This document shows positions 10,181-45,253 of a DNA stretch of 45,253 nucleotides, in pieces. A program made the position numbers and the translations under genes. The notes beneath the pieces are model-generated. The model was not told the DNA's origin. It made no database searches and saw nothing but the letters and a program-made list of their open reading frames with translations. This DNA comes from a virus, in IMG/VR virus record IMGVR_UViG_3300038466_000102, positions 1-45,253 of that record; one strand, 5' to 3'. Every line of letters starts with the position of its first letter. Positions within the stretch are counted from its first letter, which is position 1.

Positions 10181-11026
10181 ATGTCCATATTTTTTAACAA
10201 TAACCAAAGACCAATTAATCCGGAGAGGACTTTATCTGAAAAGGTAAAGGATTTTGTTCGGCCTAAGCTTCTTTCCCCGCTTCAGGGTGAGCCAGACACT
10301 TTTTTAAACCGGGTTAAGGAATTGTTCAAACCCAACCTCAAATCACCTGCCACTGAAACTGATGAGGAAACGCTTCTTAATCGGCCGAAACCGGCACCCT
10401 CGCCATCAACGACACCAGTGGTTGCGCCGGTTTTTGCCCAGGAGAAAACTCCCGCAATCGCACCTATGCCTATACCTGCTGTTTCGCCTATGCCTACATT
10501 TACCCGGCCATTTGAGAAAGAGGCCACCGAGGTTTGGGGGGACAAAGTTGAGGAGTTTTATCGGGTAATGAAAGAGGGCGAAAATGCTAAACTTCAACCG
10601 GTTATAGATGTTCCTAACCGGACTATCAAAGATCCGGTTACTGGCAAGAAAGTATGGAACAATGCGCCTGATGCCCCGATTGACCAGATTTATAACCCGG
10701 ATACGGATAAAATGGAAGACTCCATTGACAGGGGGCTGGCCCGGATAAATAACGGTACTTTTTACTTACTACTTAATAGCTTGGAATACCGGCCGATGAT
10801 GAAAGAGGCGGGAATTACTGATACTAACGATGTCCATAAAGTTGATTTTCAGGTGGCTTGGGATAAAATGAACGATCCGGGCTATAATATAAAGATGTCC
10901 AAAATCATTTACCAGTTCCATGAAAACGAGAACAAAAAGAAAGGGATTAAGAAATCCGGTTGGTCTGGCTGGGTAGCTGCGCCAGAAGATTTGGTCAACT
11001 TGGAGGAATATGTCGCTAATAAGTAG
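10181..11026 (+). CDS. Putative internal virion protein; weak lytic-transglycosylase-like motif (EDSIDRGLARIN)
   Basis: Track ORF, 281 aa. The motif resemblance to SLT E-S...GLMQI is weak. Confidence 0.4.
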   Translation: MSIFFNNNQRPINPERTLSEKVKDFVRPKLLSPLQGEPDTFLNRVKELFKPNLKSPATETDEETLLNRPKPAPSPSTTPVVAPVFAQEKTPAIAPMPIPAVSPMPTFTRPFEKEATEVWGDKVEEFYRVMKEGENAKLQPVIDVPNRTIKDPVTGKKVWNNAPDAPIDQIYNPDTDKMEDSIDRGLARINNGTFYLLLNSLEYRPMMKEAGITDTNDVHKVDFQVAWDKMNDPGYNIKMSKIIYQFHENENKKKGIKKSGWSGWVAAPEDLVNLEEYVANK

Positions 11027-14000
11027 CTTTTTTCAGAAATCAGACGCAATAAGACGCAAGCGCCTGGAGGCGATCCAGCAACAAATCACCTCTAAGCTTT
11101 CTCAGGTTAAATCTAAAGCTGATGTTACAGTGGACACAGTTAAAGACTATTTCACCAGCGGCCAGGTTAAAGAGGACATTAAAAAACAATACTCTCTGGA
11201 AAATATCAAACGGGTATTTGATCCGTTTTCCATGCTTAAGACTGCGGCCAGAACATATTTTTATGATCCGGAGACTAAAAAAGCTTTACCTCAGTCGCTG
11301 TTGCGTAAAGAAAACCGGCCGGACATGACTAAATTAGCCAACTGGAAAAATCTGTCTGAACAAGAAAGAGAACAGGAACTGCAAAAAACCATCGTTCCCA
11401 TGTTTATGCTCAGTGGGGCGCCACAAGGAGTTGTTAATCCTGGCAGCCGAGCCTATAAAAAACTTACGGATGAGGGTTGGATTAGACAAAAACTTGGAAA
11501 GGAATGGGCTTGGGTTAAACCTAAAGGTGGGTTTCAAGGATCGGCTTTACCTAATCAGCCAGCAATTGAAGCACCGACTCCATTGATTACACCACCTGCA
11601 CCTGTAACCCCTCCGACGCCGACTTTAGGAGCCGGTCCACAATTCATTGCAGCAACGCTAGCAGTCCCTCCAGTACCACTTAAGCCAGTCGTACCACCAG
11701 TTGCACCGACGCCGATTGGACCACAACCTATTATTCAAGAACAAAAAATTACCACCCCCCTCGCCACCGAAGCCACCAAGTATAAGAGTACGGAGGTTTG
11801 GTATCATGGCACAAGCCAAAAAAATGCTAAGTCAATTCTTAAAGAAGGTTGGAATCCAACTAAAAGTGACACCCCCAATGAATCACCTTATGCTTTATTT
11901 GCTAGTAAAGAGACTGGAGACGTAAACGATCATTCGGCTGGACTTTATAATCGTGGTGCAATGTTAGAGATAAGACCCAAGCCCAATGCTAATATTAAAG
12001 GTGAAGATTATTGGTATCAAACATTTGGTAAAAGTCATGGGGCGGAAGAGTCTGCTCAAATTGCAAAAAATGCCATAGCTGAAGGCGTTGATATTGTTAA
12101 AGATCCAAGCGGTGAGGTTTACATTTTAAATCCGAAAAGTGTTGATATTAAGATGGTTACAAAAGCCACTCAAGCTAAGGGGGTAACACCTCAACTAGCT
12201 GGCAAGCCGGCAATACCACCAACTGAGACTCATCCATTGATCAATGAATCTTTTGTCAGGTTGGCTGATGAGGCTAATAAAAACACCGATGCTTTGCGCG
12301 GTGGCACTTGGTTTACCAACAAAGGGGGAATTGGTTCTTTACAGTATGCGATAAAGGAAAAGATAATCGGCGGTGGTACGCTTTTTAAAGGCAACCTTAA
12401 TCCTAAAAATCCTCTTGTTGTTAAAGAAGCTCAGTTGGAAGATGGATCGTTAAACGTGATAAACCTGGGGTACGAAAATTACATTAAGCCTAAATATTAT
12501 AAAATTCTTGATCACATGATGGCGACTATTTTGTATCCTGAAAGTGGAGCTGAATTGCCTGATGACCAAATAGACATTCATCTTATGAATGCTTTGGAGG
12601 CAGCGGATATTCCTGAAACCCAGGCCATTAAAGTTTTAAACGTGACCCCTAAAAATAAACTTGACGTGACTGCAGATATGATTATGACTAAGGCTTTAAA
12701 AGAGGAGGGTTACGATGCTTTAATTTTACTAACTGAGGGTGGTCAAAAGCACGTCTTAAATTTTGATACTTCCAAGGCTTTTGAACCGGCACCGCCTAAA
12801 CTGACTATTGCCAAATTAGAAAAGCAGGAACTTGGCGAACATTTTAAAGACTTTATCTCCCAAGCGAAGACCGGAGAAAGTTATACCAGCCGGGTAAATA
12901 AACTTTCCGAGGTGGCGGATAAACCGGAGATCTCTAATGACCGGGTCATGTTGCGGCAACTGCGGACTTTGGTCCGCAAAGAGATTCTTAAATTAACCGG
13001 GTTGGATGCCGGCGGGACCGGTCACTGGAAACAGGACTTTGCCTATCTGCAGATGATTAAAGCCGATCCGGCGGTTGCCGATCAGGTCACGGCTCTGGAA
13101 GAGTTAATCTATAAACTGGATGAAAAGATCGGCGTCAATGTTCAGGCCAAGATCGCTGACTTTTCCGAGGACCTCGGCTTGCCAACCACTGCTGATTATT
13201 ACATTCCTGTCAGAAAGTATTCTACCCGGGGGACTGGCAACCGCGAGTGGATTCAGCAGAACATTCCCCTTGTCTATATGGGCAATAAACGGGGCATGGT
13301 TGGTTATATCCTGGATGTGTTGGGAATTAAACGCGACGACCTCCAGTTTCTTAACTCCCAGGATACGGCTCATTTGCCGTTTACCCAGGTTTATGATCTC
13401 TTTGGCGGGTCCGGCTTGCTGGCCAACCTCTCTACCAAACTTTTCCCGAAAGCCCAGATTACTTATAACGAGTATGATCCACAGGTGGTTAAGGCCATTG
13501 AGACTGTCAAGACCAATCCTCGGCCGGTTACCCGCTTCATCAAAGAGGTAGGAATCTGGTTACAGGACCATCCCGGCGCCGATTGGTTGGCCCATTTCCA
13601 ACTGGTCCATAAAAGCGATCCGATGTTCCGGACGGCGGCCAAACTGATTGAGGCTACCGCTGGCCGGACCGGGGAAGTAACCGCCCAAAAGATCGCCAAC
13701 ATGGTTAAAGCCGTCCCTAACTACGCTAAGGCTTTTAAAGACGTCCAGACGACCAATGAAGATGCCTTTGCCATTATGGACCGGTTGATTGCCAACCCGC
13801 CTTCTAAAGGATCAACTTTAGTCTATATTGACCCGCCTTACTGGGGTTCAGCTGGCTATGCTCAGGGAGCGGAGATGATGCGCTCGTCCGGGTTTATGAA
13901 GGTGTTGGATTACATCGGCAAACTGGATAAAGTCGGCGTTAAGGTGATCGCTTTCAACAACGACCCCGAAGTCCAGGCACCTAAGGCCGGCCTGGAAGAA

Positions 14001-16973
14001 ATCCACCTTAACAATATCATGGGCAAGATCAATCAACTGTCCGAACAGGGGGTAACTGTCATCCGGGGGATCAAGCCGATCGGGGCGCCGGATAGGCGGG
14101 AGATTATGCTGACTAACCTGGACTATGGTAAAAAGACCAACCGTTTGCTTAACCAGAAGTGGGTCATGGAGGCAATTGAGAAACTTCATGCCCAGCCGGC
14201 GGCCGAGATGTCCAAGTCTTTCCTATCATTACTGCGGTCCATTCGTGGTAGCTCAGAGTTTGCCCCGGGAACACAGCGGATTTCCCCCAACCAAATCCGC
14301 ATGATCCGCACTCTTAAGAATCGTCTGCGGATTAAGAACCGGGAGATGCTGCCGATCCTAGACGAGTTGTTGGGTGATACCTCTTTTGCCAAAATGACCA
14401 AAGAGGATGGCGAGAAGATGATCGCCTGGCTGCAGCCACAGAACTACCGAATTATTGAAAAGCAGGTGGACCTGACCAAAGACCGGCTGGGCAAAGCCAG
14501 GCTGCAGGCGGTTATTGGCGAGCCATCAGTGGCTGTTAATGAAGAATTGGAAAAGAAGTTTAACTTGATTGATGTCATGAACCGGACAGCCGGCGATATT
14601 GAGAACATTACTAAAATGGTGGGCAACCTGCCGAAGATGGAAGCACCTAAATGGAATAATCTGCGCCGGGCTTTACTGCTACCGGCTAAAGCTTTGTCTG
14701 AAGACCTGGCTACAAAAATTCTCGGCATTAAGGGATCGTTCCATACTCCTCTACGGGCGATCATCAACATCAGCACCAAGTTCAAAAACCGGATGCATCT
14801 CAATCTATCCCAATTAGCTAAAGATTTATCTGAGGAAGAACGAAAAGCGGTCGCCTTTATCCAAGGCGGGGCCGAGAAAGAGTTTAAGGGGACAATCTCG
14901 CCCAAGGCAAGACAAACTGCTAATTATTTACAGGAAGTTTTCCGGGCAAACCTGGCTATTGTTAACCGGTTGCGCCAAGCAGTTAACCAACCGATCGTGC
15001 CAGAAAGAAATCCTTACATCTCTTATATTTTAAACCAGGACATTTTAGAGGCGGCCCATTTAGGCGATAGGGTAAAGTTTTGGGAACAGCGGGTAAAAAC
15101 TCCCAAAGACTTTGCTGCCGGTTTGTTTACCCAGGACCTTAACAGAATCTTTAAGATTTGGTCCGAGTCCTCAGCCAACTGGCTCAAGAAAAATCTTTAT
15201 CAGGCTCTCTTGGCTGATAAATTTGAGGAGATTTACAAGGTGTCTGATGCCGCTTCCATGTATGCCCGGACAATCATGGAGATGGATATTTATAATATGA
15301 TGGGGGATTTTGAGCGCTCGTTCCGGGTAATCGGCCAGGCCATCAATGACTCTGTCGGCAAGATTTATCCTAAGCGAATTCCGGTTAATGAAGAACTGGC
15401 TAAATCTTTGCTCAATACTACCTTTGGCCAGGAACTGATAGATTCCATTAAACACGGTTATCTTTATGTGCCACGCTTCCAACTGCCTAATGTTGGTGAA
15501 GTCTTTCATAAAGTGTTTTATCCGGCCAAGTTAGCCTGGAATTTCGGCTTTGCTGTTCTTAACCGGCAGCAACCCTGGGCAGCCACACCGTTTGTCGGAG
15601 TGATTAATAAACTTAAAGGACGGCTTAAACTTTACGGAGTGATGATGCCTTGGAATGGCAAGGCGCGAGACCGCTATATTTCCATGCTGGAATCTTCCGG
15701 TTACCAATTTGGCCGAATGATGTACGGTGAGCAATTTCCTACGGCTAAAAGCACGCTAGGAGTCTTTGTGGATCGGTCCATTAACTTTTTAAATGATGTT
15801 ACCGAGCTGGCCAACCGGATGGAGAATGCCATTGATGCTGAATATGTGCTGGCCAATTTGGAAAAAAAGGCTGGTATGACCTTGGAACGGCGTGACAAAG
15901 AGAAAATTGCCGGCCAATTCTCGGCTTTTATTAACTTTATCTCCGGCAAGAGCTATTCGCCGGTGGCCCAGCGCAATGCGATCGGCCGAGTGCTTTATAC
16001 TTTCCAGCAGTATCCGATCTACCAACTGAATGTATTTCACGAAATGCTCAAGTATGCCCATCAAGACAAAGGGGCGGCTGACTTTTGGAAGTTAATGAAT
16101 GACGAAGGTGGTGCTTCTGAAAAAGCTTACGAGGCTTTTCAAAAACTGCCGGATAAGAGTAAATCCCGCTACTTTGCCATTTTATTGGCAATTGCCATCC
16201 CGGTAGCCACCATTTATTCCATGTCCCGGTCCTGGTCAGTGGCTGCGCGGGCCTTGCCCGGAATGCCCAGAGTTGCCATGAATAATATTCTTAAAGCTTT
16301 ATTCGCTTGGGTTGATGATCCGAGCGATGACAATAGAGATGTTTTGGCGACAGAGATTAAAGGTTTCTTCCGGGTAACTGTAACTCAACGGGTAAATGAT
16401 GCTTTTGATGTGATGAAGACCGGCATCCTCCAAACTACCACCACCGGCCGACCGTTGTTTGTCCAAAAGACGATTGACAATGCGGTCCGGATGTTTGTCT
16501 TTGGCCGGTCCATTTTACCAGAGTACGAGAAACGCTACCCCAGCATTCTTTCCAAGATATTCGGCGGTCAAACAGAGGCCGGACAAGTTAAGAAACTGCA
16601 GAAGTCCCGGTTAAAACAGCAACAGACTGACACGGAAAACGCAGTGGAGTTTATGAAACGACTGGAGACCAGTAAAACTATTGAAGAGAAAAAGGCTTTG
16701 CTTAAAGAGTTTGCCGAGGCCGGCAAGTTTAATACTCAGATGAAAGATAAATTAAAACAGTACCTAACTGAAAAAACCACTGGCACCGGCGGTTTGGAAC
16801 GATCAATCATCGGTCTGAATGATGCTGATCAGGCTCAGTTTGTTTTAGACAATCTTAACAAGGCTAAAACTGTTGAGGCGAAGCAAGCTTTGCTGGCCGA
16901 CTATGCCCAGCGAGGAGTCCTAACTGCCAATGTAATTGCCGAAATGAAAAAACTATTGCTTAATAAAAAATGA
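11010..16973 (+). CDS. Giant polyvalent virion protein (1987 aa) with Dam-like N6-adenine DNA methyltransferase domain and a possible ART/PARP-like motif
   Basis: Track ORF; GGAGGA upstream. Contains DLFGGSG (13401-13415) and IDPPY (DPPY at 13830-13841) in the order motif I then motif IV. Contains VWYHGTSQKNAKSILKEGW (YHGT at 11802-11813). Hydrophobic segments lie in the C-terminal third. Confidence 0.7.
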   Translation: MSLISSFFQKSDAIRRKRLEAIQQQITSKLSQVKSKADVTVDTVKDYFTSGQVKEDIKKQYSLENIKRVFDPFSMLKTAARTYFYDPETKKALPQSLLRKENRPDMTKLANWKNLSEQEREQELQKTIVPMFMLSGAPQGVVNPGSRAYKKLTDEGWIRQKLGKEWAWVKPKGGFQGSALPNQPAIEAPTPLITPPAPVTPPTPTLGAGPQFIAATLAVPPVPLKPVVPPVAPTPIGPQPIIQEQKITTPLATEATKYKSTEVWYHGTSQKNAKSILKEGWNPTKSDTPNESPYALFASKETGDVNDHSAGLYNRGAMLEIRPKPNANIKGEDYWYQTFGKSHGAEESAQIAKNAIAEGVDIVKDPSGEVYILNPKSVDIKMVTKATQAKGVTPQLAGKPAIPPTETHPLINESFVRLADEANKNTDALRGGTWFTNKGGIGSLQYAIKEKIIGGGTLFKGNLNPKNPLVVKEAQLEDGSLNVINLGYENYIKPKYYKILDHMMATILYPESGAELPDDQIDIHLMNALEAADIPETQAIKVLNVTPKNKLDVTADMIMTKALKEEGYDALILLTEGGQKHVLNFDTSKAFEPAPPKLTIAKLEKQELGEHFKDFISQAKTGESYTSRVNKLSEVADKPEISNDRVMLRQLRTLVRKEILKLTGLDAGGTGHWKQDFAYLQMIKADPAVADQVTALEELIYKLDEKIGVNVQAKIADFSEDLGLPTTADYYIPVRKYSTRGTGNREWIQQNIPLVYMGNKRGMVGYILDVLGIKRDDLQFLNSQDTAHLPFTQVYDLFGGSGLLANLSTKLFPKAQITYNEYDPQVVKAIETVKTNPRPVTRFIKEVGIWLQDHPGADWLAHFQLVHKSDPMFRTAAKLIEATAGRTGEVTAQKIANMVKAVPNYAKAFKDVQTTNEDAFAIMDRLIANPPSKGSTLVYIDPPYWGSAGYAQGAEMMRSSGFMKVLDYIGKLDKVGVKVIAFNNDPEVQAPKAGLEEIHLNNIMGKINQLSEQGVTVIRGIKPIGAPDRREIMLTNLDYGKKTNRLLNQKWVMEAIEKLHAQPAAEMSKSFLSLLRSIRGSSEFAPGTQRISPNQIRMIRTLKNRLRIKNREMLPILDELLGDTSFAKMTKEDGEKMIAWLQPQNYRIIEKQVDLTKDRLGKARLQAVIGEPSVAVNEELEKKFNLIDVMNRTAGDIENITKMVGNLPKMEAPKWNNLRRALLLPAKALSEDLATKILGIKGSFHTPLRAIINISTKFKNRMHLNLSQLAKDLSEEERKAVAFIQGGAEKEFKGTISPKARQTANYLQEVFRANLAIVNRLRQAVNQPIVPERNPYISYILNQDILEAAHLGDRVKFWEQRVKTPKDFAAGLFTQDLNRIFKIWSESSANWLKKNLYQALLADKFEEIYKVSDAASMYARTIMEMDIYNMMGDFERSFRVIGQAINDSVGKIYPKRIPVNEELAKSLLNTTFGQELIDSIKHGYLYVPRFQLPNVGEVFHKVFYPAKLAWNFGFAVLNRQQPWAATPFVGVINKLKGRLKLYGVMMPWNGKARDRYISMLESSGYQFGRMMYGEQFPTAKSTLGVFVDRSINFLNDVTELANRMENAIDAEYVLANLEKKAGMTLERRDKEKIAGQFSAFINFISGKSYSPVAQRNAIGRVLYTFQQYPIYQLNVFHEMLKYAHQDKGAADFWKLMNDEGGASEKAYEAFQKLPDKSKSRYFAILLAIAIPVATIYSMSRSWSVAARALPGMPRVAMNNILKALFAWVDDPSDDNRDVLATEIKGFFRVTVTQRVNDAFDVMKTGILQTTTTGRPLFVQKTIDNAVRMFVFGRSILPEYEKRYPSILSKIFGGQTEAGQVKKLQKSRLKQQQTDTENAVEFMKRLETSKTIEEKKALLKEFAEAGKFNTQMKDKLKQYLTEKTTGTGGLERSIIGLNDADQAQFVLDNLNKAKTVEAKQALLADYAQRGVLTANVIAEMKKLLLNKK

Positions 16974-31296: not shown

Positions 31297-31524
31297 ATGA
31301 AGAAATATAATTTGCCAGAAATCCTGGTGATAGTGGTTTGCGTGATTGTTGTTTGGTTTATCGCTCAGGCGCTTTATTCGTCTTGGTCTAAAACCTATTC
31401 TACCAATCTTGAAATGACCTTGGATGAGGTTTGCGATCAGCATGGTGGTTATAGTTATTGGAGTGAAACTGAGCGTGCTGATCCGGAAGACTCGCCTCTG
31501 CCAGTGTTTAAGTGCGTGCTTTAA
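31297..31524 (+). CDS. Small membrane protein (75 aa)
   Basis: Track ORF; N-terminal hydrophobic helix. Confidence 0.55.
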   Translation: MKKYNLPEILVIVVCVIVVWFIAQALYSSWSKTYSTNLEMTLDEVCDQHGGYSYWSETERADPEDSPLPVFKCVL

Positions 31525-31562
31525 TTAAATTTGCCTAAAATTATTAACAGAGGAAAAAGACA
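31523..31562 (+). repeat. 40-nt direct repeat, copy 1 (AATTAAATTTGCCTAAAATTATTAACAGAGGAAAAAGACA)
   Basis: Identical to 31791-31830; intergenic; starts at the stop of the upstream gene. Confidence 0.95.
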
Positions 31563-31565
31563 ACT

Positions 31566-31796
31566 ATGTTCACTGCTAAAATCAACTCCTCAAAAGGCTG
31601 GTTGGTTGGAGGTAGAAAACAGGGTACTGATTGGCACGTCTTGCCGGTTAATGATCTTAAGGCCCATTGGCGGTCTGCCGGCTGCTGGTGCTGTCCCCGG
31701 GTGGAGGTCCAGTTAAACGACAGCCGGGTGATTGTGCATAATGCCGCTGATATGCGGGAGTTTGTCTATGAGGGGAAGAATAAGGTGAAGAATTAA
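31566..31796 (+). CDS. Hypothetical Cys-containing protein (76 aa) bracketed by the 40-nt repeats
   Basis: Track ORF. Confidence 0.6.
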   Translation: MFTAKINSSKGWLVGGRKQGTDWHVLPVNDLKAHWRSAGCWCCPRVEVQLNDSRVIVHNAADMREFVYEGKNKVKN

Positions 31797-31830
31797 ATTT
31801 GCCTAAAATTATTAACAGAGGAAAAAGACA
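31791..31830 (+). repeat. 40-nt direct repeat, copy 2
   Basis: Identical to 31523-31562. Confidence 0.95.
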
Positions 31831-31854
31831 CAACCGCCCAGTACGGAAATCAAA

Positions 31855-32268
31855 ATGAAATTAATTAAATTATCCTTGCCGCCACATTACACAAATAAAG
31901 AGGATTTGGAACCTTATTTTGCTATTGTTGATAATAATGTCTTTGAGTTTATTAATCAGTGGAAATGGCGTTTGTTTTATGGGTATGCGGTTAGGGCACG
32001 AGTATACCGGAAAGATAATGGTTGGGATACTGGAAGCCAGATAATTGGAATGCACGCGCAAATTCTTTTTCCTCGTGCCGGTATGGTCCCCCATCATATA
32101 AATGGAAACAAGCTAGATAATCGGTTGGCTAATTTGGAGTTGGTTTCGCTTAAGCTTAATAATCAGCTGAGGAATGCTGGTTTTTTAAAGCACCGGTATG
32201 CTATATATCCACCATTGAAAAACGTGAAGGTATACTATGTGGTCCCGGTTCCTAATCCAGTCACCTGA
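31855..32268 (+). CDS. Free-standing HNH endonuclease
   Basis: Track ORF; PHHINGNKLDNRLANLELV is the HNH_3 motif. Confidence 0.8.
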   Translation: MKLIKLSLPPHYTNKEDLEPYFAIVDNNVFEFINQWKWRLFYGYAVRARVYRKDNGWDTGSQIIGMHAQILFPRAGMVPHHINGNKLDNRLANLELVSLKLNNQLRNAGFLKHRYAIYPPLKNVKVYYVVPVPNPVT

Positions 32269-32332
32269 GCGATTAAGCGGCCTGCTGTAAGCAGTAGATA
32301 ACCCGAACTAAGGCGAGTTAGCCTGTTAGTCG

Positions 32333-32384
32333 GCTATCGGGTAATCTTGGTCTTGACAGGCTGTTTCCGGTTATGGTTAACTGG
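32333..32384 (+). repeat. 52-nt repeat copy 1 carrying a promoter-like module (GCTATCGGGT-N6-GGTCTTGACA...)
   Basis: Identical to 33717-33768. TTGACA at 32353-32358; the best -10 candidate is TGgTTAACT at 32374-32382. Confidence 0.85.
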
Positions 32385-32413
32385 CTATATTATTAAGTTT
32401 TAAAGGAGGGATT

Positions 32414-32698
32414 ATGCCTAAGTCAAAAGCTTTGGTCCCCTTTATTCGCGGTTATCAAATTAAGCGCCATGATTTTATAGTGGAGACGCCGGAAGTGTTG
32501 CACGTGTATTTTACCGGCCCGATCCATAATCTTAAGGAATTGCCGACCGGCTATCGTGGTTTAAGGTCAGCGTTGGTTAATTTGGATGATGTTCTTGCTG
32601 TCGGTTTGGATGTGCAGGAATATTGGGAAGTTAAAACCGGCAAGTTTCGTGGTTTGACTGTGCTTTGGCTAACGTGTGTGGCCGAGGAGGATTTATGA
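32414..32698 (+). CDS. Hypothetical protein (94 aa)
   Basis: Track ORF; AAGGAGGG upstream. Confidence 0.65.
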   Translation: MPKSKALVPFIRGYQIKRHDFIVETPEVLHVYFTGPIHNLKELPTGYRGLRSALVNLDDVLAVGLDVQEYWEVKTGKFRGLTVLWLTCVAEEDL

Positions 32699-32856
32699 AG
32701 AAATATAGAGTGATGGTTAAGCAGATTTATGTTTACGATGGTGTTCCGGCTAAGACTAAAGCCAAGGCAGTCCAAAAAGTGCTGGATATGGATTGGATTG
32801 GTCATGATGAATGTGAAGAGCAATTGGAAACCTCAGCGGAAATAGAGGAGCTATGA
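32695..32856 (+). CDS. Hypothetical small protein (53 aa)
   Basis: In-frame ATG within track ORF 32665..32856; ATGA overlap; GAGGAGG upstream. Confidence 0.5.
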   Translation: MKKYRVMVKQIYVYDGVPAKTKAKAVQKVLDMDWIGHDECEEQLETSAEIEEL

Positions 32857-33086
32857 TTACAATGCCGATTGTTTCTTTGGTGTCCAAGCTGATCCTGCAC
32901 CGGTCCCGGGCAGATTACCGGCTTTATTATTTCTTGCAGACCGAGGCTGGCCGGAGGATGTGCCATGAGTCGTTTGACGATGCTTACGCGGCGATCTATC
33001 GCTGGCGCGTGCTGTCGTTCCAGGCTAATGGCTTGTTGCACGGCGAGCCGACTATTAAAAGGACGGAGGCTTATGACGCTGGGTGA
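32853..33086 (+). CDS. Hypothetical protein (77 aa)
   Basis: Track ORF; GAGGAG upstream; ATGA overlap. Confidence 0.55.
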   Translation: MITMPIVSLVSKLILHRSRADYRLYYFLQTEAGRRMCHESFDDAYAAIYRWRVLSFQANGLLHGEPTIKRTEAYDAG

Positions 33087-33168
33087 CTTTGGGTTTGTTC
33101 TGCTTTGCTGGTCCATGGTGTGGCTGGTGATCTGCGGCATTACTTTTGTGGTGGAGCGCCGGCGGTAG
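33073..33168 (+). CDS. Very small membrane protein (31 aa)
   Basis: In-frame ATG in track ORF 32965..33168, preceded by GGAGG; sequence MTLGDFGFVLLCWSMVWLVICGITFVVERRR. Confidence 0.4.
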   Translation: MTLGDFGFVLLCWSMVWLVICGITFVVERRR

Positions 33169-33193
33169 CTTGTCCGGCGCTATCGGGTTTTTT
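33155..33193 (+). terminator. Intrinsic-terminator-like hairpin plus T-run
   Basis: AGCGCCGG (33155-33162) pairs with CCGGCGCT (33174-33181); ATCGGG then TTTTTT follows. Confidence 0.55.
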
Positions 33194-33228
33194 GGGTCTT
33201 GACATCCGGTTTTGGCTATGCCATCAAT
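33179..33228 (+). promoter_or_regulatory. Third, diverged copy of the promoter-like module (GCTATCGGGT-N6-GGTCTTGACA-T-CCGGTTTTGGCTA)
   Basis: It has the same 26-nt frame as the 52-nt repeats, with TTGACA at 33199-33204. The -10 is unclear. Confidence 0.45.
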
Positions 33229-33271
33229 ACAGACGTTATCAGTTATTCAACAGAGGGGGGGTGAGGATTTT

Positions 33272-33445
33272 ATGGCTTATGATTCTTTGATTACGGCGAC
33301 CGTTCGTATCCCCGGCACTGATGCCGGCGCTAAGGGTAAGGATGCGGCGGCCGATGTCCGGGCTGTGTTGCAGGTGCTGGTTGACTTGCATTATTGTGAG
33401 GCTGGGGATATTGATGTGACTATTAATACACCGGCGACTGCCTAG
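33272..33445 (+). CDS. Hypothetical small protein (57 aa)
   Basis: In-frame ATG in track ORF 33212..33445, preceded by GTGAGGA. Confidence 0.5.
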   Translation: MAYDSLITATVRIPGTDAGAKGKDAAADVRAVLQVLVDLHYCEAGDIDVTINTPATA

Positions 33446-33716
33446 TCGTTTGGGTCGGGGGACCATTGTGGTTTCCCGGCCGGACCGATCAGCGATTTTT
33501 GTCAGGTTTTCCACCTCCCAGAATATCACTTCTACCTGGTCGGTTCTTTTTGGTGGCTGTTTGGGTGCTCGGGTTTCGGCCGGTCACTATGTGTTTGGTC
33601 GTGCCGATCCGCTGTCACGCGTTGACAGGCGAGGTTGGTTTACCCGAGCATTACCCGTATTGGCTTTGCTCGCCGGCTTTTTTGGGTTTTCCGGTATGTG
33701 TTTATCTGGGTGTTTT
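33446..33716 (+). other. A-depleted, G+T-rich noncoding segment 1 (candidate structured RNA or cis element)
   Basis: About 28 A in 271 nt by hand count. A 12-bp hairpin at 33453-33481 has three G.U pairs that work only on the + strand RNA. GGCGAG/CTCGCC plus GGCTTTTTT lies at about 33629-33684. No SD-preceded ORF is present. Confidence 0.5.
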
Positions 33717-33768
33717 GCTATCGGGTAATCTTGGTCTTGACAGGCTGTTTCCGGTTATGGTTAACTGG
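33717..33768 (+). repeat. 52-nt repeat copy 2 carrying the promoter-like module
   Basis: Identical to 32333-32384; TTGACA at 33737-33742. Confidence 0.85.
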
Positions 33769-33797
33769 GGTAGTTATTAATTTTAGGAGGAGGGTTT

Positions 33798-34076
33798 ATG
33801 TCTGCTACTACTCAAAAGCCCAACCGGGATCCGCTGGTGGCTTGTTTGTCGCTTATTATTCAGGCCCATGAGTCGTTGGGTCGCTATTATGATGAGGCGG
33901 CTAAGGCCGGTTTATCCGGTGATCGGTTGGTCACTCTGACTAAAGGATTTATTGCCCTTGAGTTGGCTTCTTCCGGGCTTCGGTCGTTGCCTGACATTGA
34001 CGATTTGGTGTCGGCTCGCAGTCCGATGGTTGCTGAGCCTGGCCTTCGCGGATCAGTGAAACGGAGGTGGAATTAA
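33798..34076 (+). CDS. Hypothetical protein (92 aa)
   Basis: Track ORF; AGGAGGAGGG upstream. Confidence 0.65.
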   Translation: MSATTQKPNRDPLVACLSLIIQAHESLGRYYDEAAKAGLSGDRLVTLTKGFIALELASSGLRSLPDIDDLVSARSPMVAEPGLRGSVKRRWN

Positions 34077-34077
34077 T

Positions 34078-34179
34078 ATGGGTTACGAACATTATGGGTT
34101 TGTGCTTAAGTGGGACGATTTGCCGGAAATTCAGGAAATCCGGTCGTTCTTGGCTGGCCCGATTAAGGGGGTGAAATAA
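34078..34179 (+). CDS. Hypothetical small protein (33 aa)
   Basis: Hand translation MGYEHYGFVLKWDDLPEIQEIRSFLAGPIKGVK; GGAGGTGG upstream. Confidence 0.4.
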   Translation: MGYEHYGFVLKWDDLPEIQEIRSFLAGPIKGVK

Positions 34180-34181
34180 TT

Positions 34182-34412
34182 ATGGTTGACTACGAATTTT
34201 ACGGCGACTCCTCCATCCTCGGCTTGTCCGTGGACGGGTCTGCCGAGGTGTTTATTGATCTGGACGACGTGCGGAACGTTTCCCGGGCGGTTGACGATGA
34301 CGAGGTTAATCCGTCTATTCCGGTGGCCGTGTCGCCGGAGGATGTGGGCGGTTTGTTTGGAGCGCATGGATGTGCCGAGCAATGTCCGCGGCTTGAGGAG
34401 GAATTGGAGTAG
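34182..34412 (+). CDS. Highly acidic small protein (76 aa; 19 D/E versus 3 K/R)
   Basis: Track ORF; GGGGGTG upstream. Residues were counted by hand. Confidence 0.65.
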   Translation: MVDYEFYGDSSILGLSVDGSAEVFIDLDDVRNVSRAVDDDEVNPSIPVAVSPEDVGGLFGAHGCAEQCPRLEEELE

Positions 34413-34422
34413 CTGTTCTCTT

Positions 34423-34455
34423 GCCCGGTCACTCGTTTGGGTGGCCGGGCTTTTT
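34423..34455 (+). terminator. Intrinsic terminator (10-bp stem plus TTTTT)
   Basis: GCCCGGTCAC (34423-34432) pairs with GTGGCCGGGC (34441-34450), including one G.U, around an 8-nt loop. TTTTT follows at 34451-34455. Confidence 0.65.
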
Positions 34456-34800
34456 GATTTGTCCCTTGAGGTGGCGTTTACTTCTGTCGCCCCCGGGCCG
34501 GCGCTGGGCAGTTTTGTTCTGCTTGTTTTATTGCCGGTTTCACTAATTATAGGCTCGTCGCATAAGATATATTGTGCGACACTCCAGGGGTAGCACTTCT
34601 ACCTCTGTTCGCCCTTGCCTGTTGCTCTGCTTCTGTATCTGTTAATCCCAGGCTATACTATGTGCCTGGGCTTGCTGATCGTGCGTTAAGCGCTGCTACG
34701 CGCAGGCGCTAAATGGCTGTTTTGGCACACAAGGCTTGTTTAGCTTGTTTCTTGCTAACTATAGGGGTATTTGCTGTTGTTGTGTGTTTGTCGTCAGCGC
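34456..34800 (+). other. A-depleted, G+T-rich noncoding segment 2 with several hairpins and GCTTGTTT repeats
   Basis: Hairpins are CCCAGG/CCTGGG (about 34647-34670), GTCGCA/TGCGAC (about 34556-34579) and AGCGCTGC/GCAGgGCGCT (about 34688-34710). GCTTGTTT occurs at 34521, 34734 and 34743. No SD-preceded ORF is present. Confidence 0.5.
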
Positions 34801-34804
34801 GGCC

Positions 34805-34823
34805 GGGAGGGGGGGGTGGGGGG
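34805..34823 (+). other. G-tract GGGAGGGGGGGGTGGGGGG (G-quadruplex-capable)
   Basis: Read directly: G3-A-G8-T-G6 on the + strand, in noncoding sequence. Confidence 0.8.
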
Positions 34824-34963
34824 ACGAAAGAGTCTCTCCGAGTTTTAAGGTTCTTCTTTCCTAGACCGGCCTAGAATTTTTTTGAAAAGTTTTGGATCCT
34901 CTTTTGGCCTATAATAGGGGTCCCAATTTTTAAATTTTTTAGGAGAAAGTTTTAAGTTGGGGC

Positions 34964-34993
34964 TTGACTTAATAAATCGTTAAGTGGTATTCT
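34964..34993 (+). promoter_or_regulatory. Promoter (TTGACT-18 nt-TGgTATTCT) containing AATCGTTAAG
   Basis: TTGACT at 34964-34969, TG at 34985-34986, TATTCT at 34988-34993. The ATG at 35002 is 8 nt after the -10. Confidence 0.55.
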
Positions 34994-35001
34994 TGGGGTA
35001 T

Positions 35002-35172
35002 ATGCCTCGTAAAGTAATTAATCATTGTGCCTACTGCCAGAAGCAGGTGGACCGTAATGTTTTCTGCAGGAACTCCCACCGGGTGATGTTTTTCCTTAAG
35101 AAGAAAAAGCAGGAGGAGAAAATGGCGGCAGCGGTTCTAAGGAAGGCGCTTGCTTCTAAACCTAATGTCTAA
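35002..35172 (+). CDS. Small Zn-ribbon protein (TRASH/FCS-like) immediately upstream of terL
   Basis: In-frame ATG in track ORF 34984..35172. Contains CAYCQKQV...VFCRNSH and a basic tail. It overlaps the terL start. Confidence 0.55.
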   Translation: MPRKVINHCAYCQKQVDRNVFCRNSHRVMFFLKKKKQEEKMAAAVLRKALASKPNV

Positions 35173-36793
35173 CTCTACTTTCTCTCTTTCTCAGGCCGAG
35201 GCGTTTAATTCTCTTGCCTGGATACTTAATAATAAGATCGTCAATGAAAACGGTTCCTCCTTGGAGTTTGCCGACCATTCCTTTATGATTGATCCTTTCC
35301 TGGATAACTCTGAGCGCCAGGTAGCTGAGAAATGCTCGCAGATCGGCTGGTCAACCTTAGCCATTCTTAGAAGCTTCCATTTAGCCCGCTACGCCGGCGC
35401 TAATATCATTCACACCTTTCCCTCCCGTAATATGTCTAAAGACTTTGTCATCCCTAAAGTCAATCCGCTTATCCAAAGAAATCCGTCTATTAAGGCTATG
35501 GTCGGGACCGACTCCTTAAATCTTAAGCAGGTGGGGGACCGCTTTATCTACTACAGGGGCAGTTATGAGCAAACAGAGGCTATCAGTATCTCTGCCCATA
35601 TCCTGATTAATGATGAGTACGATCGTTCTAATCAAAAGGTCTTAAAGACTTACCGCAGCCGCTTAGATGACGCTAAACGTGAGCGGCCTGAGCTTGGCTG
35701 GGAGTGGCGCTTCTCCAACCCTTCCATCCCCGGTTATGGCGTGGATGAGCTATGGCAGAAGTCGGACCAAAAGCATTGGTTTGTTAAATGCTCGCATTGC
35801 AATCGGGACTGGTATTTGGACTTTCCAGAGAACATTAATTTTGATACTAAACAAAAGGTCTGTGATAAATGCCATAAGCCTTTTTCTAAGTATGACCTAA
35901 CCACCGGCCGTTGGGTTAACAAGGCCGAGTCTAAAATCTCCGGCTACTGGATTTCGCAGATGTTTGTTCCCTGGATCAGTGCCACTAAGATCATTGAGGA
36001 CTCTGAGGGTGATCCGGGTGTGTTCCATAACTTTACTTTAGGCAAACCCTTTATCAGCAAGGATGCTTCTGTTTCCCGGCAGGCGATCCTGCGCTGCATT
36101 GTGGCGACTACTAACTCCCGCGCCGGCGTAGCTATCGGCGTGGATAATGGTATCACTAAGCATTATGTTGTCGGCAACCGCACCGGCATTTTCCTGGTCG
36201 GGGAGACTAAAGATTGGGGGGTGATTGAAGATCTACGAAATAAGTTTAATGCTACCATGGTGATTGACGCTTTGCCTTACCCAAATGAACCGACCCGGAT
36301 GATGAATAAATACCGGGGCAAGGTTTTCCTTTCCTACTATCAGCCGGACAAGCGGGCGTCAGGCATGGTTTATTGGGATTATGACGACGGGATTGTCCGT
36401 TCGGACCGGACCAAAATAATTGACTTTGTGGTGGCAGAGATTAACAGTAATGATGTTAAGTTTAACCTGACTGCTAACGATCTGGATCAGTATATCTGGC
36501 ATTGGCAGCAGCTTTACCGGGTAGTGGAGCTTAACACCCAGGGTATCTTGAAACCTAAATGGAAATGTATTGAGGCTAGACCGGATCACTATGCTCATGC
36601 TACAGTGTTCTGGAGGCTTGCCTTAGAGCAGACGTTAGGGCAAGGCGGCGTAGTTGGTCCCACTGCTGCCATATCATTAAAAGACCGGCACCAGGAAGTA
36701 GGACCCGACTCTACCGTTCCTGCACTTAACTTGGAAGAGGTCGTCAGGCGGGCCTCGTTTGGTCCTAGCCACCGGTCCTGGAAAGTGCGATAA
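35150..36793 (+). CDS. terL: Terminase large subunit (GpA-like)
   Basis: Track ORF, 547 aa. Has the Walker-B-like ILINDEYD and an internal CSHCN...CDKCH zinc motif as in GpA-type terminases. A portal-sized gene follows. The start may be TTG 35150 or ATG 35165. Confidence 0.75.
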   Translation: MLLNLMSNSTFSLSQAEAFNSLAWILNNKIVNENGSSLEFADHSFMIDPFLDNSERQVAEKCSQIGWSTLAILRSFHLARYAGANIIHTFPSRNMSKDFVIPKVNPLIQRNPSIKAMVGTDSLNLKQVGDRFIYYRGSYEQTEAISISAHILINDEYDRSNQKVLKTYRSRLDDAKRERPELGWEWRFSNPSIPGYGVDELWQKSDQKHWFVKCSHCNRDWYLDFPENINFDTKQKVCDKCHKPFSKYDLTTGRWVNKAESKISGYWISQMFVPWISATKIIEDSEGDPGVFHNFTLGKPFISKDASVSRQAILRCIVATTNSRAGVAIGVDNGITKHYVVGNRTGIFLVGETKDWGVIEDLRNKFNATMVIDALPYPNEPTRMMNKYRGKVFLSYYQPDKRASGMVYWDYDDGIVRSDRTKIIDFVVAEINSNDVKFNLTANDLDQYIWHWQQLYRVVELNTQGILKPKWKCIEARPDHYAHATVFWRLALEQTLGQGGVVGPTAAISLKDRHQEVGPDSTVPALNLEEVVRRASFGPSHRSWKVR

Positions 36794-39658: not shown

Positions 39659-40726
39659 ATGGATTTTACGACTAGAGTCACTTCACTCACTCAAGATAGA
39701 ATTTTACCCAAGGTTGTTGATACTGTTCTCGGCGATAACTTAATCACTTTCAGGATTCTTTCCAATGGCAAGAAATGGGACGGCCACCAGATGTCCAGGC
39801 CAGTTAAATACCAGAAATCCAATTTAGGCGGATCGTTCTCCGGTTTAGATACTCACTCTACTTCTACGGCACAGACCCGCGTCATGTCTACTTTTGATGT
39901 CCGCGGCTATGAACAGCCAGTGGCCATTCCCGGCATGGAGAAAGCGGTTAACCGCACTCCGGCCCAGGTGATGAGCCTGGTCAGGGTAGAGGTGGAATCA
40001 GCCCAGCAGGATATGATGGATGACATTGGGGGTTTGGCCTATGGTTTGGGTACAGGCAATAGCAATAAAGACTTTTTAGGGTTAGGCGCGGCCATTGATG
40101 ACGGCAGCGAAGTGGATACTTATGGGAATCTGTCCCGGACCACTTATACAACCTTAAAAGCTACCAGGACGGCTTCAGGCGGAACTTTCACTTTGACTAA
40201 ATTAGCGACTTTGCTGTCAGCGGTGTCTGCCGGATCGTCTTCAAGGATGCGACCGACTCTCTTGGTTTCCAATGAGACGGTCAGGGATTTGTATGAAGAG
40301 CTGTTAACTCCGATGGTCCGGGCTAACTATGAGTCTTTCGGGATGCCGACGGTGACCAGAACCTCAAGAGGCGTGGTTAGAGGCGCCGAGTTAGGGGTAG
40401 CAACCGGTTTTACGGCTTATACTTTTAGAGGAATCCCTTGGGTAGCTGATGAGAAATCAACGTCTCAGACTCTTTGGGCAATGAATGAAACCTTTATTGA
40501 TTGGTACGGCTTGAATGATCCGGACCTGCAGGCGATTAGCCTGGGAACAGGCGAGATTGACGGTCCGTATGCGGAAGCACCGAGCAAAAACGTCGGCTTC
40601 CAATGGACTGGCTTTATGCGGCCGATCAACCAATACGGCGAAGTAGCGCACATCTATTTATTAGGTAACATGGTTTGCTGGAATCCGATCCGTCAGGGTC
40701 GTTTAACCGGTATAACCACAGTCTAA
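39659..40726 (+). CDS. Major capsid protein (355 aa)
   Basis: In-frame ATG in track ORF 39563..40726, which begins inside the promoter. AAAGGGG lies upstream. The call rests on its own promoter and its size and position after the portal/scaffold genes. Confidence 0.6.
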   Translation: MDFTTRVTSLTQDRILPKVVDTVLGDNLITFRILSNGKKWDGHQMSRPVKYQKSNLGGSFSGLDTHSTSTAQTRVMSTFDVRGYEQPVAIPGMEKAVNRTPAQVMSLVRVEVESAQQDMMDDIGGLAYGLGTGNSNKDFLGLGAAIDDGSEVDTYGNLSRTTYTTLKATRTASGGTFTLTKLATLLSAVSAGSSSRMRPTLLVSNETVRDLYEELLTPMVRANYESFGMPTVTRTSRGVVRGAELGVATGFTAYTFRGIPWVADEKSTSQTLWAMNETFIDWYGLNDPDLQAISLGTGEIDGPYAEAPSKNVGFQWTGFMRPINQYGEVAHIYLLGNMVCWNPIRQGRLTGITTV

Positions 40727-40737
40727 GGAGGCTGAAT

Positions 40738-41457
40738 ATGCTAGAGGGACAACCAGCAATCTTTGATCTTAATCCGTACGAGCAGAGTTCCGTGCAGATG
40801 CACAAATTGGGTGCAAAGGGCGAAACCGGTGATGGCCGGATTTTCCGGTATGCCCAAATGGGCGAAGCGGTTACCCTCGGTTATTTGACTCAGTCGCCGG
40901 CGATTGATACCGCTACGATTACGATGGCCGTGACTACTGCGGCAGCCATCGGGGCCGAATCCATTACTTTCACTCATGGGGCCACTACCAGCGCGGCAAA
41001 CGAGTATGCTGAAGGGTTCCTGTCTGTTTCCTATGGTACCGGTATCGGGCAGAATTTGAAGATTTCTGACCATTTGGCTTGGACTTCCGCTCAAACAGGA
41101 GCGGTAGTCAATTTAGAAGATCCGTTGATAGTGGCTTTAGATACCACTTCTAAAATTGACGTCGCCCACAATCCTTGGAATGGGGTCTTGATGGACACTT
41201 CCCAGGTGACCGTGCCGACTGGGGTGGCTTTAAGAAGCTTTACCTCGGCCTATTACGGCTGGCTGCAAACCAGGGGCGTCTGCGGTGTCTTTTCCGATGG
41301 CACTATTACCGCCGGTTACGAATTTAACAATGACGGTTCGGTAGCTGGTGCGATTGATATCAGCGCCACCAATGAGTTCCAAAGGTTCCCGGTCGGTCAC
41401 GCGATCCAGGCCGGAGCGCAGAACTATGTTCACCAGGTATATTTAACAATTGACTAA
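40738..41457 (+). CDS. Capsid-associated (decoration-like) protein
   Basis: In-frame ATG in track ORF 40675..41457, preceded by AAGGAGG. The function is inferred from position only. Confidence 0.45.
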   Translation: MLEGQPAIFDLNPYEQSSVQMHKLGAKGETGDGRIFRYAQMGEAVTLGYLTQSPAIDTATITMAVTTAAAIGAESITFTHGATTSAANEYAEGFLSVSYGTGIGQNLKISDHLAWTSAQTGAVVNLEDPLIVALDTTSKIDVAHNPWNGVLMDTSQVTVPTGVALRSFTSAYYGWLQTRGVCGVFSDGTITAGYEFNNDGSVAGAIDISATNEFQRFPVGHAIQAGAQNYVHQVYLTID

Positions 41458-44678: not shown

Positions 44679-45253
44679 ATGAAGTTAGATATTACTCCCA
44701 ACACACCATACGATGTAGGATTGCTTACTCCCACCGACCTCAAAATCTCTACTGCCTCAAAGGGTGGGGTGTTACGGAGTATTGATGGGGCGACAGGGGA
44801 TGTGGCAAGGACGACAACGGGTCAGATTGAAGATGCAAAATATGGATGGACGGCTTATCAAATCGCTACTGCTTGGAGTGCAGAATTTGATACTGCGGTT
44901 ACAAGAACTGGCTTAAAGACACTTAAACTATCAACAACCGATGCAACAGGAAAAATTGTTGCTTATAATATAGATAATAATTTTGAGACAGGTTATATAC
45001 TAAAATTTGTTCCCATTAAAGCAAGCACCTCATATACTCTTTCTTGTTATGTAAAAACCAATAATTGTGCTGCTAATTCAGCATTCCTGACATTTTTTGA
45101 ATATACTCAAGCTGCTCAAGTTGCAAATACTAAAACAAACAAGCTTTCAGGAACTAATGATTGGACTTTGTGTACTGTAACTATAACTACATTAGCCACG
45201 ACTAAGTTTCTTTTAATTGAATTAAATAATTCTGTCGCTGGCAATATCTCAGA
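44679..45253 (+). CDS. Tail fibre / receptor-binding protein, 5' part (continues at base 100 after the 99-nt overlap; CBM4/9-like jelly-roll)
   Basis: Hand translation MKLDITPNTPYD... runs to the window end with no stop. The segment ...TSYTLSCYVKTNN...NDWTLCTVTITT...LLIELNN..AGNISDAWFD fits a carbohydrate-binding-module pattern. Confidence 0.7.
   Translation, partial: MKLDITPNTPYDVGLLTPTDLKISTASKGGVLRSIDGATGDVARTTTGQIEDAKYGWTAYQIATAWSAEFDTAVTRTGLKTLKLSTTDATGKIVAYNIDNNFETGYILKFVPIKASTSYTLSCYVKTNNCAANSAFLTFFEYTQAAQVANTKTNKLSGTNDWTLCTVTITTLATTKFLLIELNNSVAGNIS
45155..45253. repeat. Terminal overlap, right copy (identical to 1-99)
   Basis: 99/99 identity with the left end. Confidence 0.97.

Follow-up and report, generated by a model that had tools for sequence, protein, structure and literature searches.

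Two A-poor, G+T-rich stretches of the phage genome recorded in IMG/VR as IMGVR_UViG_3300038466_000102 (45,253 nt, positions 1 to 45,253 of the record; hereafter the window) are the subject of this analysis. They lie between an HNH endonuclease gene and the gene for a GpA-type large terminase, and the second of them, segment 2, bears a 28-bp dif-like Xer site (Table 1). The ends of the window are identical over 99 nt (1-99 = 45155-45253), within the tail-gene region, so the assembly is circular and the genome measures ~45.15 kb; this identity is an assembly overlap and no biological terminal repeat. The + strand carries every large open reading frame (ORF), and besides the two genes just named we recognised those for a P22-like portal, a major head protein, a CHAP-domain protein and a GroEL-like chaperonin. 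No tRNA or tmRNA was detected in the window. A DNA search found no similarity between the window and cultured phages, and the closest cultured-phage terminases, many of them from Staphylococcus, Bacillus and Listeria phages, are less than 30% identical. Many relatives with terminase identities of 50-85% are present in IMG/VR and in metagenomes. This is a tailed phage of ~45 kb, and its host is most likely an ultra-small bacterium of the Patescibacteria (candidate phyla radiation, CPR).

An A-poor island of small gene cassettes

Segment 1 contains 10.3% A, 23.2% C, 30.3% G and 36.2% T, and its A fraction is the minimum among all 271-nt stretches of the contig, which average 27.6% with an sd of 5.2%; segment 2 (34413-34800) contains 12.6% A. 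A previous reading of this DNA by eye, which we call the original prediction, had counted about one A in ten bases in segment 1 and thought segment 2 similar, and both statements are borne out. It had also tied the depletion to these two segments, whereas we find that the whole island around them is depleted, coding genes included, with an AT skew down to -0.53 that no other part of the contig reaches. On the left the island begins abruptly at the junction of two genes, where the fraction of A at third codon positions (A3) drops from 0.28 in gene 32665-32856 to 0.05 in gene 32853-33086; the right edge is a run of G residues, the G-run (34805-34823). Island genes have A3 values of 0.02-0.09, against 0.12-0.44 in the other genes, and retain A at codon positions 1 and 2 (0.19-0.34). 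Since A3 is this low and the non-coding parts of the island hold 12.4% A, neutral coding and non-coding sites share one composition. Comparable A-poor islands stop at the G-run in the related phage loci L002, L019, L020, L023 and L228/L229/L230.

The missing stop codons, the long overlapping ORFs and the numerous G.U pairs of the segments all follow from this composition. The four overlapping + strand ORFs to which the original prediction drew attention (33450..33728, 33466..33780, 33635..33871 and 34186..34593) are all present, and, as it remarked, none has a Shine-Dalgarno (SD) sequence; the GGAGG + ATG arrangement that precedes every real gene of the region is absent from all four. Could one of the long A-free frames (e.g. 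33466-33780 or 34186-34593) still encode a small hydrophobic protein? Such frames stay open for 92-135 codons, and within the island of the related locus L023 there is a small A-poor ORF that does possess a proper SD. At 10% A, however, stop-free frames are expected, and these ones start at TTG; where one does not run across a promoter module, it shares its bases with a real gene read in a different frame. Segment 1 moreover lacks 3-base periodicity (chi-square p = 0.62, versus 1e-7 to 0.01 in neighbouring genes) and, unlike every neighbouring gene, scores negative in all three frames, whether the codon models are trained on phage genes or on A-poor genes. We regard such a protein as extremely improbable. 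Coding scores are negative in all frames of segment 2 as well, and the claim that both segments are non-coding stands. A lesson for genome scanning is that stop-free overlapping ORFs and G.U-rich hairpins can arise purely from composition.

The original prediction had supposed that the segments belong to mini-operons. One promoter module recurs in three copies (P1-P3) and a hairpin closes each unit, so the mini-operons are real. P1 and P3 begin an 87-nt repeat that is 87% identical, its first 52 nt without a difference (32333-32384 = 33717-33768). Each module has TTGACA, 18 nt and then a TTAACT/ATCAAT-type -10 region, with a strong SD and a small gene downstream, and we infer that P1-P3 are sigma70-like promoters from which the mini-operons would be transcribed. 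The terminator-like hairpin of mini-operon 1 overlaps the start of P2. Segment 1 starts directly after the stop codon of the 57-aa gene, so that mini-operon 2 most likely has it as its 3' untranslated tail; its two stable stem-loops may serve in mRNA-end protection or pausing. Segment 2 opens with the strong terminator of mini-operon 3 and continues as a non-coding junction with the dif core, after which come the G-run and a highly conserved ~100-nt block before the terminase operon.

Table 1. Coordinates of features in and around the A-poor island of the window
Feature	Position	Strand	Basis or remark
HNH endonuclease gene	31855-32268	+	gene recognised in window
Promoter module P1, GCTATCGGGTAATCTTGGTCTTGACA-N18-TTAACT, TTGACA at 32353-32358, one GGCTGTTT word	32333-32384	+	repeat and consensus
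A-poor compositional island	32853-34830	+	A 15.5% overall, 12.4% in non-coding parts
Hairpin AGCGCCGG...CCGGCGCT then T6 run, terminator-like end of mini-operon 1	33155-33194	+	sequence; related match in terminator scan
Promoter module P2, 79% identical to P1/P3, TTGACA at 33199-33204	33179-33212	+	repeat alignment
57-aa gene of mini-operon 2, strong SD, ATG start	33272-33445	+	ORF and composition; A3 = 0.02
Segment 1, non-coding orphan spacer	33446-33716	+	no periodicity, no coding score, no homologue
Stem-loop H1, 13-bp stem, 3 G.U pairs, no U-tract, directly past stop codon	33452-33484	+	-24 kcal/mol, z = -5.1
Y-shaped (three-way) stem-loop element	33563-33656	+	-47.1 kcal/mol, z = -4.1
Promoter module P3, TTGACA at 33737-33742, one GGCTGTTT word	33717-33768	+	repeat alignment
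Intrinsic terminator closing mini-operon 3, stem of 12 bp (9 of them G-C), then TTTTTG	34423-34456	+	terminator scan; z = -6.6
28-bp dif-like Xer site TC-GTCGCATAA-GATATA-TTGTGCGAC-AC	34555-34582	.	equals Patescibacteria chromosomal dif consensus
Hairpin CCCAGGC-N10-GCCTGGG, ACTATGTG loop	34647-34670	+	z = -2.9; kept in L230
G-run GGGAGGGGGGGGTGGGGGG and ~80 nt, short hairpin and T7 run at end	34805-34905	+	most conserved non-coding block of region
Promoter-like site TTGACT-18-TATTCT, then Zn-ribbon ORF 34999-35172 leading into terminase gene	34964-35172	+	ORF and motif
GpA-type large terminase gene	35150-36793	+	gene recognised in window

Two island proteins, of 92 and 76 aa, were searched for homologues; the 92-aa protein has none among 5.8 billion proteins, and for the 76-aa protein there were only two. 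The latter (34182-34412), the sole island protein with any homologue found, is very acidic (~26% D+E), has no family match and has relatives in L020 (2556-2777), L227 and L228; its acidity is reminiscent of DNA-mimic anti-restriction proteins. As a whole the island can be likened to morons and to the ORFs flanked by promoter-early stem-loops (PeSLs) in the hyperplastic regions of T4-like phages. It consists of small genes with a promoter and terminator of their own (here on consensus-level evidence), its composition is unlike that of the rest of the genome and its content varies, near-identical promoter-plus-hairpin modules lie between cassettes, and in relatives mosaic joints fall at cassette borders. 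Extreme depletion of A from the sense strand (A3 0.05-0.09; spacers 10-12% A) is, to our knowledge, not a described trait of morons or PeSL regions. We think it fairly probable that the island is a group of moron-like accessory-gene cassettes just 5' of the packaging genes.

A copy of the host dif site in segment 2

The palindrome of segment 2, GTCGCATAA-GATATA-TTGTGCGAC (34557-34580), forms the core of the 28-bp site and occurs once in the phage genome, where 0.01 copies are expected by chance. The exact motif GTCGCATAA-N6-TTGTGCGAC is found in 26 IMG/VR contigs, with variants in relatives. A scan of a species-representative genome collection found it in at least 120 records as well (host loci L107-L226). 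Among the 80 matches listed, 54 are named as Patescibacteria or CPR, 13 are metagenome-assembled genomes labelled 'uncultured Gammaproteobacteria', 4 are Chloroflexota and the rest are unnamed or other.

Across the 120 host loci the motif takes the form RY-GTCGCATAA-N6-TTGTGCGAC-RY, an 11-6-11 geometry, with GATACA (29) or GATATA (14) at its centre. It is intergenic, its neighbouring genes unrelated between genomes; 119 of the 120 loci, each of 8 kb, hold a single motif, and there is one locus per complete chromosome among the matches listed. GC skew turns from + to - across the motif in 63 of 68 loci (sign pattern 42:1; Wilcoxon p = 4.6e-12). In two complete chromosomes the motif lies at 53.2% (CP175956.1) and 49.4% (OZ246404.1) of the length, taking the origin to be at coordinate 1. 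The heptamer AGGGGAG is directed toward the motif 275 times and away from it 11 times over 878 kb. The arms resemble those of E. coli dif, GGTGCGCATAA-TGTATA-TTATGTTAAAT, and the properties just listed are those by which dif sites are defined (PMC2731167). The geometry, the intergenic location, the skew switch, the position near 50% and the convergence of AGGGGAG lead us to conclude, on sequence grounds, that Patescibacteria and some Chloroflexota have this motif as their chromosomal dif, where Xer would bind. The phage bears an exact copy of this dif, with a host-type central region. Readings of the palindrome as an NrdR box, a LexA box, a repetitive extragenic palindromic element or an insertion-sequence hairpin were rejected because it is essentially single-copy, lies at a skew switch and has the dif geometry.

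Two by-products of the comparison are a candidate dif consensus for Patescibacteria, RY-GTCGCATAA-GATACA-TTGTGCGAC-RY, and AGGGGAG as a candidate FtsK-orienting, KOPS-like (FtsK-orienting polar sequence) polar motif for these bacteria. In the phage AGGGGAG is rarer than expected (3 versus 6.9), as is AGGGGA (20 versus 31). Several of the host-labelled records deserve mention individually. L157 holds two exact dif motifs, at 2321-2344 and 2476-2499, 155 nt apart, a pair that an earlier insertion or excision through Xer could have left behind. An ORF for a DEDDy-type 3'-5' exonuclease lies directly right of dif in L117, L123 and L180, and a similar N-terminus is found past the spacer in the phage locus L014 (~730). 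Both L125, a 39.4-kb contig from a Peribacteria bin, and L140 have a dif-like site followed by a G-run, after which L125 has a terminase-like ORF of 481 aa with a Walker-A motif; these two are probably phage genomes binned with hosts. The identical 24-mer is present in L210, a record annotated as plasmid p4228-RoL of the Chloroflexota isolate Thermanaerothrix solaris, which suggests plasmid-borne use of the site.

Related phages retain the parts of segment 2 to very different degrees. In L230, whose terminase is 85% identical to that of the window in protein and 75% in DNA, the terminator hairpin of mini-operon 3 is 87% identical, and the spacer from terminator to palindrome is not homologous (338 nt against 98 nt in the window). 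The 28-bp palindrome region that follows is 79% identical, with an unchanged left arm and one change in the right; the next 222 nt, of equal length in both phages, are 65% identical, and the G-run plus 100 nt is 93% identical. In L227 the 76-aa protein is 85% identical, the nucleotide similarity of ~84% ends a few bases past its stop codon, and the following 450 nt are unrelated to the window, yet A-poor (0-16% A per 100 nt). In L020, L002, L014, L019, L023 and L228, too, A-poor cassettes lead to a terminator and then to an A-poor spacer, 330-500 nt long, with the palindrome and the G-run after it. A global alignment of six homologous spacers was uninformative. The words present in them above chance are TTGTGCG, TGTGCGA and TTGTGCGAC, from the right arm of the palindrome, plus the T/G-rich heptamer TGTTGTG, and TTGTGCGAC is the only 9-mer common to at least four of the six, where 0 are expected by chance.

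The block formed by the G-run and the next ~80 nt (GAAAGAGTCTCTCCGAG...TTTAAGGTTCTTCTTTCC...CTAGAATTTTTTT), which lies at 708-810 in L230, is conserved in L228 too (~3045-3110); it begins just beyond the coordinates given in the original prediction. A G-run stands 3' of a dif-like site in many unrelated IMG/VR phage contigs, and L083, L091, L092, L101, L125 and L228 all have dif first, then the G-run and then either the Zn-ribbon ORF or the terminase. Of the elements in this region the block is the best candidate for a packaging/terminus signal or for a terminator that insulates the late operon. The small Zn-ribbon ORF (CxxC ... FC-x3-HR/CR), between the dif/G-run block and the large terminase, occurs in the window and in L083, L091, L092 and L228; its product could be a small terminase-like or site-binding protein. 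The combination of dif, G-run and terminase offers a search key for phages of this kind.

RNA, packaging or recombination

The hairpin with 12 bp and three G.U pairs that the original prediction had placed at the start of segment 1 (33453-33464 with 33470-33481) is real, with a free energy of -24 kcal/mol for the 36-nt RNA and a z-score of -5.1. Its wider claim, that G.U pairs make the helices specific to the + strand, fails. Minimum free energy structures contain 19 G.U pairs in segment 1 and 32 in segment 2, versus 20.0 +/- 3.5 and 32.4 +/- 3.7 in dinucleotide shuffles, and against such shuffles the folds of segments 1 and 2 score z = -3.5 and -3.5 on the plus strand and -3.0 and -4.1 on the minus strand. 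G.U-rich helices are expected here because a directional loss of A converts A-U pairs to G.U on that strand. The excess stability stems from a few discrete elements: H1, the Y-shaped element, the terminator, the palindrome with its neighbouring hairpin (z = -4.95) and the hairpin at 34647-34670.

Nor do the data support paralogous structured RNAs. The segments cannot be aligned (best local alignment 23, versus 20.7 +/- 2.9 in shuffles, with at least 23 reached in 58 of 300), and the segment 1 covariance model, built on the Y-shaped element, has no match besides itself in the 429 kb that the window and 39 related loci make up. The segments do have words in common, 15 8-mers versus 4.3 in shuffles and 8 9-mers versus 1.3. 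All of the shared words cited in the original prediction lie where it located them, but several have other explanations: two of the four copies of GGCTGTTT belong to the repeated promoter module, and in segment 2 a single terminator hairpin (34423-34456) accounts for TCGTTTGGGT, which is its loop, and CCGGTCACT, which is an arm. The motifs ACTATGTG and AACTATAGGGG were considered as T7-like promoters for a phage polymerase and set aside, their counts being not above chance and no RNA polymerase having been found in the window. The suggested iterons, which would be three or more direct repeats of ~17-22 bp, were not found, the G-run being the sole tandem repeat and the direct repeats being promoter modules. 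Of the alternative idea of a single-strand-active cis element or origin, one half survives: segment 2 does hold a cis DNA element, but this is a double-strand recombination site, the host dif. The absence of a known RNA class or tRNA was called correctly, with no tRNA found and 0 Rfam matches at the gathering score in the window and 14 host loci; at E <= 10 the region 32200-35100 gave only noise.

These data bear on an account in which the segments act as RNA. Segment 1 would be a small RNA derived from the 3' untranslated region of mini-operon 2, or an element that stabilises its mRNA or directs RNase processing, and segment 2 a non-coding RNA between terminators at 34450 and 34885. P2 lies 5' of segment 1 with no strong terminator between them, H1 and the Y-shaped element are far more stable than shuffles, and the hairpin at 34647-34670 stays paired in L230 through one compensatory change, C-G to G-C. 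Against it, segment 1 has no homologue by blastn in the TerL-related loci, L227-L229 or the metagenome loci, so covariation cannot be shown; other hairpins of segment 2 are not conserved, among them the one at 34585-34607 in L230, where the terminase gene is 75% identical but the stretch from dif to the G-run only 65%; and in L227 the spacer is wholly replaced. With no Rfam match, minus strands that fold as well as plus strands, G.U pairs at chance level and a strong terminator ahead of most of segment 2, we judge this account quite unlikely. The G-run block raises a different possibility: segment 2 and the block together could be a pac or cos site, a physical genome end or a replication origin, with the island terminal, first-entering or terminally repeated and the dif-like site incidental. 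The block lies directly 5' of the Zn-ribbon ORF and the large terminase, its 93% identity in L230 exceeds the 75% of the TerL DNA, and several viral contigs of ~40-50 kb end 0.3-3 kb from the motif. The nearest cultured TerL relatives include many phages of Staphylococcus, Bacillus and Listeria, groups that package genomes with long terminal repeats bearing small early genes. Yet the overlap of the window's ends is an assembly artefact in the tail-gene region, far from the site, the contig ends near G-runs may be sequencing drop-outs, iterons and tandem repeats are lacking, and a conserved core equal to the host dif is left without explanation. We therefore hold a packaging or terminus function for the whole of segment 2 to be possible but unlikely; for the G-run block itself it is compatible with the explanation we prefer.

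It is also conceivable that the phage took up the dif-like sequence from a host chromosome as a piece without function. Phages acquire host DNA, and no integration event was seen; but many divergent phages, whose terminases differ, have the site at one and the same place, no words other than its arms are significantly conserved in diverged spacers, and no host flank accompanies what is the sole copy in a genome where none is expected by chance, which makes a relic very improbable. The explanation we prefer, with moderate confidence, is that the A-poor segments are untranslated parts of a ~2-kb island of three mini-operon cassettes 5' of the packaging genes, and that segment 2 holds a copy of the host dif that is probably used by host Xer. 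Once circularised, the phage DNA would expose the site to one or more Xer tyrosine recombinases of the host. The outcome may be integrase-free integration at the chromosomal dif, as in the integrative mobile elements that make use of Xer, known as IMEXs, or resolution of multimers of an episomal form. To judge from the sequence, it is likely that the phage exploits host Xer recombination in some way; integration specifically is unproven. The conserved position of the site among phages with different terminases and the hypervariable accessory region that adjoins it both count for IMEX-like or plasmid-like use. So does the recombinase search, within its scope: no Pfam domain of this kind was found in the 18 largest ORFs scanned (at least 241 aa; ORF 40675-41457 and most small ORFs lay outside the scan), in a genome with many unannotated proteins.

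Known IMEXs include CTX-phi, TLC-phi and the gonococcal island. As a class they comprise filamentous phages, dif-type double-jelly-roll prophages and genomic islands that use host Xer/dif (PMC12715192), and a hypervariable accessory region beside the site has been described for IMEX prophages (PMC12715192; PMC2731167). The phage resembles them in having a 28-bp 11-6-11 site that matches the host dif, with such a region next to it. It differs in being a ~45-kb tailed double-stranded DNA phage, where the IMEXs described in the literature we found are filamentous or tailless phages or genomic islands, in that no integrated copy or attL/attR pair was found, and in its host clade, the Patescibacteria, for whose dif/Xer system we found no literature account. 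The literature we found likewise contains no description of dif in tailed phages or in CPR phages; copies of the host dif have until now been described from filamentous and tailless phages rather than tailed ones. The alternative of an IMEX inserted into a phage dif was rejected, since the window has a single dif-like site and lacks a second arm. A second comparison is with ColE1 cer and pSC101 psi, multimer-resolution sites of plasmids that use host XerCD; in these extrachromosomal replicons non-coding accessory DNA flanks a dif-like core, and the recombination depends on Xer of the host. The ColE1 site is mentioned in the dif literature (PMC2731167). The phage is similar in having a dif-like core with non-coding DNA alongside, and may share the extrachromosomal state and the dependence on host Xer. 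Cer-type cores, in contrast, have an 8-bp centre and defined sites for accessory proteins, whereas the phage site has the 6-bp centre of chromosomal dif, its flanking spacer is not conserved and no plasmid-type maintenance genes were recognised.

Several observations weigh against the explanation we prefer. In what was a limited sampling, no homologue of any window protein lies at the 120 host dif loci, and no integrated copy was seen. The best 80 TerL relatives in metagenomes are all on contigs of at most 44 kb, and no repressor or other lysogeny gene was identified in the phage. The dif match is the sole basis of the host assignment, which is weakened by the 'uncultured Gammaproteobacteria' labels and the few Chloroflexota among the listed host records. 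Many phages have TGTATA or TATATA as the central 6 bp where the host consensus is GATACA. H1, the Y-shaped element and the hairpin at 34647-34670 exceed what composition predicts and could have an RNA role, and the A-depletion of the island has no demonstrated cause. We therefore infer an Xer function for the site.

The A-depletion and the phage lifestyle

Where sequence has been replaced, as in L227, the A-poor composition has been retained, which fits a long-acting, strand-specific pressure on the DNA of the locus. The depletion also continues past the strong terminator at 34423-34456 and is thus not tied to transcription units. Selection on transcripts alone is unlikely, given that the first two genes of mini-operon 1 are not A-poor (A3 0.15 and 0.28) though their promoter is identical to P3. 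Mimicry of the host dif neighbourhood was discarded, since in hosts the DNA to the left of dif has a high A content (0.31-0.35) and A is not scarce in other phages with dif, as was avoidance of a specific A-containing motif, there being no strong trinucleotide outlier beyond the general loss of A. The pressure could be mutational, through repeated single-strandedness of the + strand, or selective, against adenine-dependent nucleases that act on early-exposed DNA or RNA. The heavy strand of vertebrate mitochondrial DNA is enriched in G+T, a pattern that strand-specific mutation pressure on single-stranded DNA yields. The island is like it, and like asymmetries associated with transcription or replication, in that one strand is G+T-rich and synonymous and non-coding sites behave alike; unlike the mitochondrial strand, it is not depleted of C (21-23%) and has a sharp edge at a gene junction with no gradient. 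The island is a clean and recurrent case of extreme local strand asymmetry that lies outside current explanations.

Almost no phages of CPR bacteria have been cultured, and what is said of their lifestyles is deduced by indirect means. That many of their tailed phages bear a copy of the host dif provides a concrete, sequence-based link to the host, and a route, open to testing, to lysogeny or episomal maintenance without an integrase. A bolder and rather doubtful extension is that integrase-less tailed phages of CPR bacteria lysogenise or persist by means of the host dif copy and Xer, with the island kept nearly free of A on one strand by a strand-specific process or by selection tied to the way this end of the genome is handled. 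Candidate causes would then be that the DNA stays single-stranded for long, or that the DNA or transcripts exposed first are shielded against host nucleases dependent on adenine. If this is true, these would be the first tailed 'IMEX' phages.

Two features outside the island complete the description of the window. The 1987-aa protein at 11010-16973 has a short DNA-methyltransferase-like PHROG match (residues 887-987) alone, with no match in PDB or Pfam, and is possibly an injected virion protein. ORF 31566-31796, which lies just 5' of the gene for the HNH endonuclease, is bracketed by a direct repeat of 63 nt whose copies (31523-31585 and 31791-31853) are 83% identical; the pair may be a further repeated intergenic module or an insertion scar.

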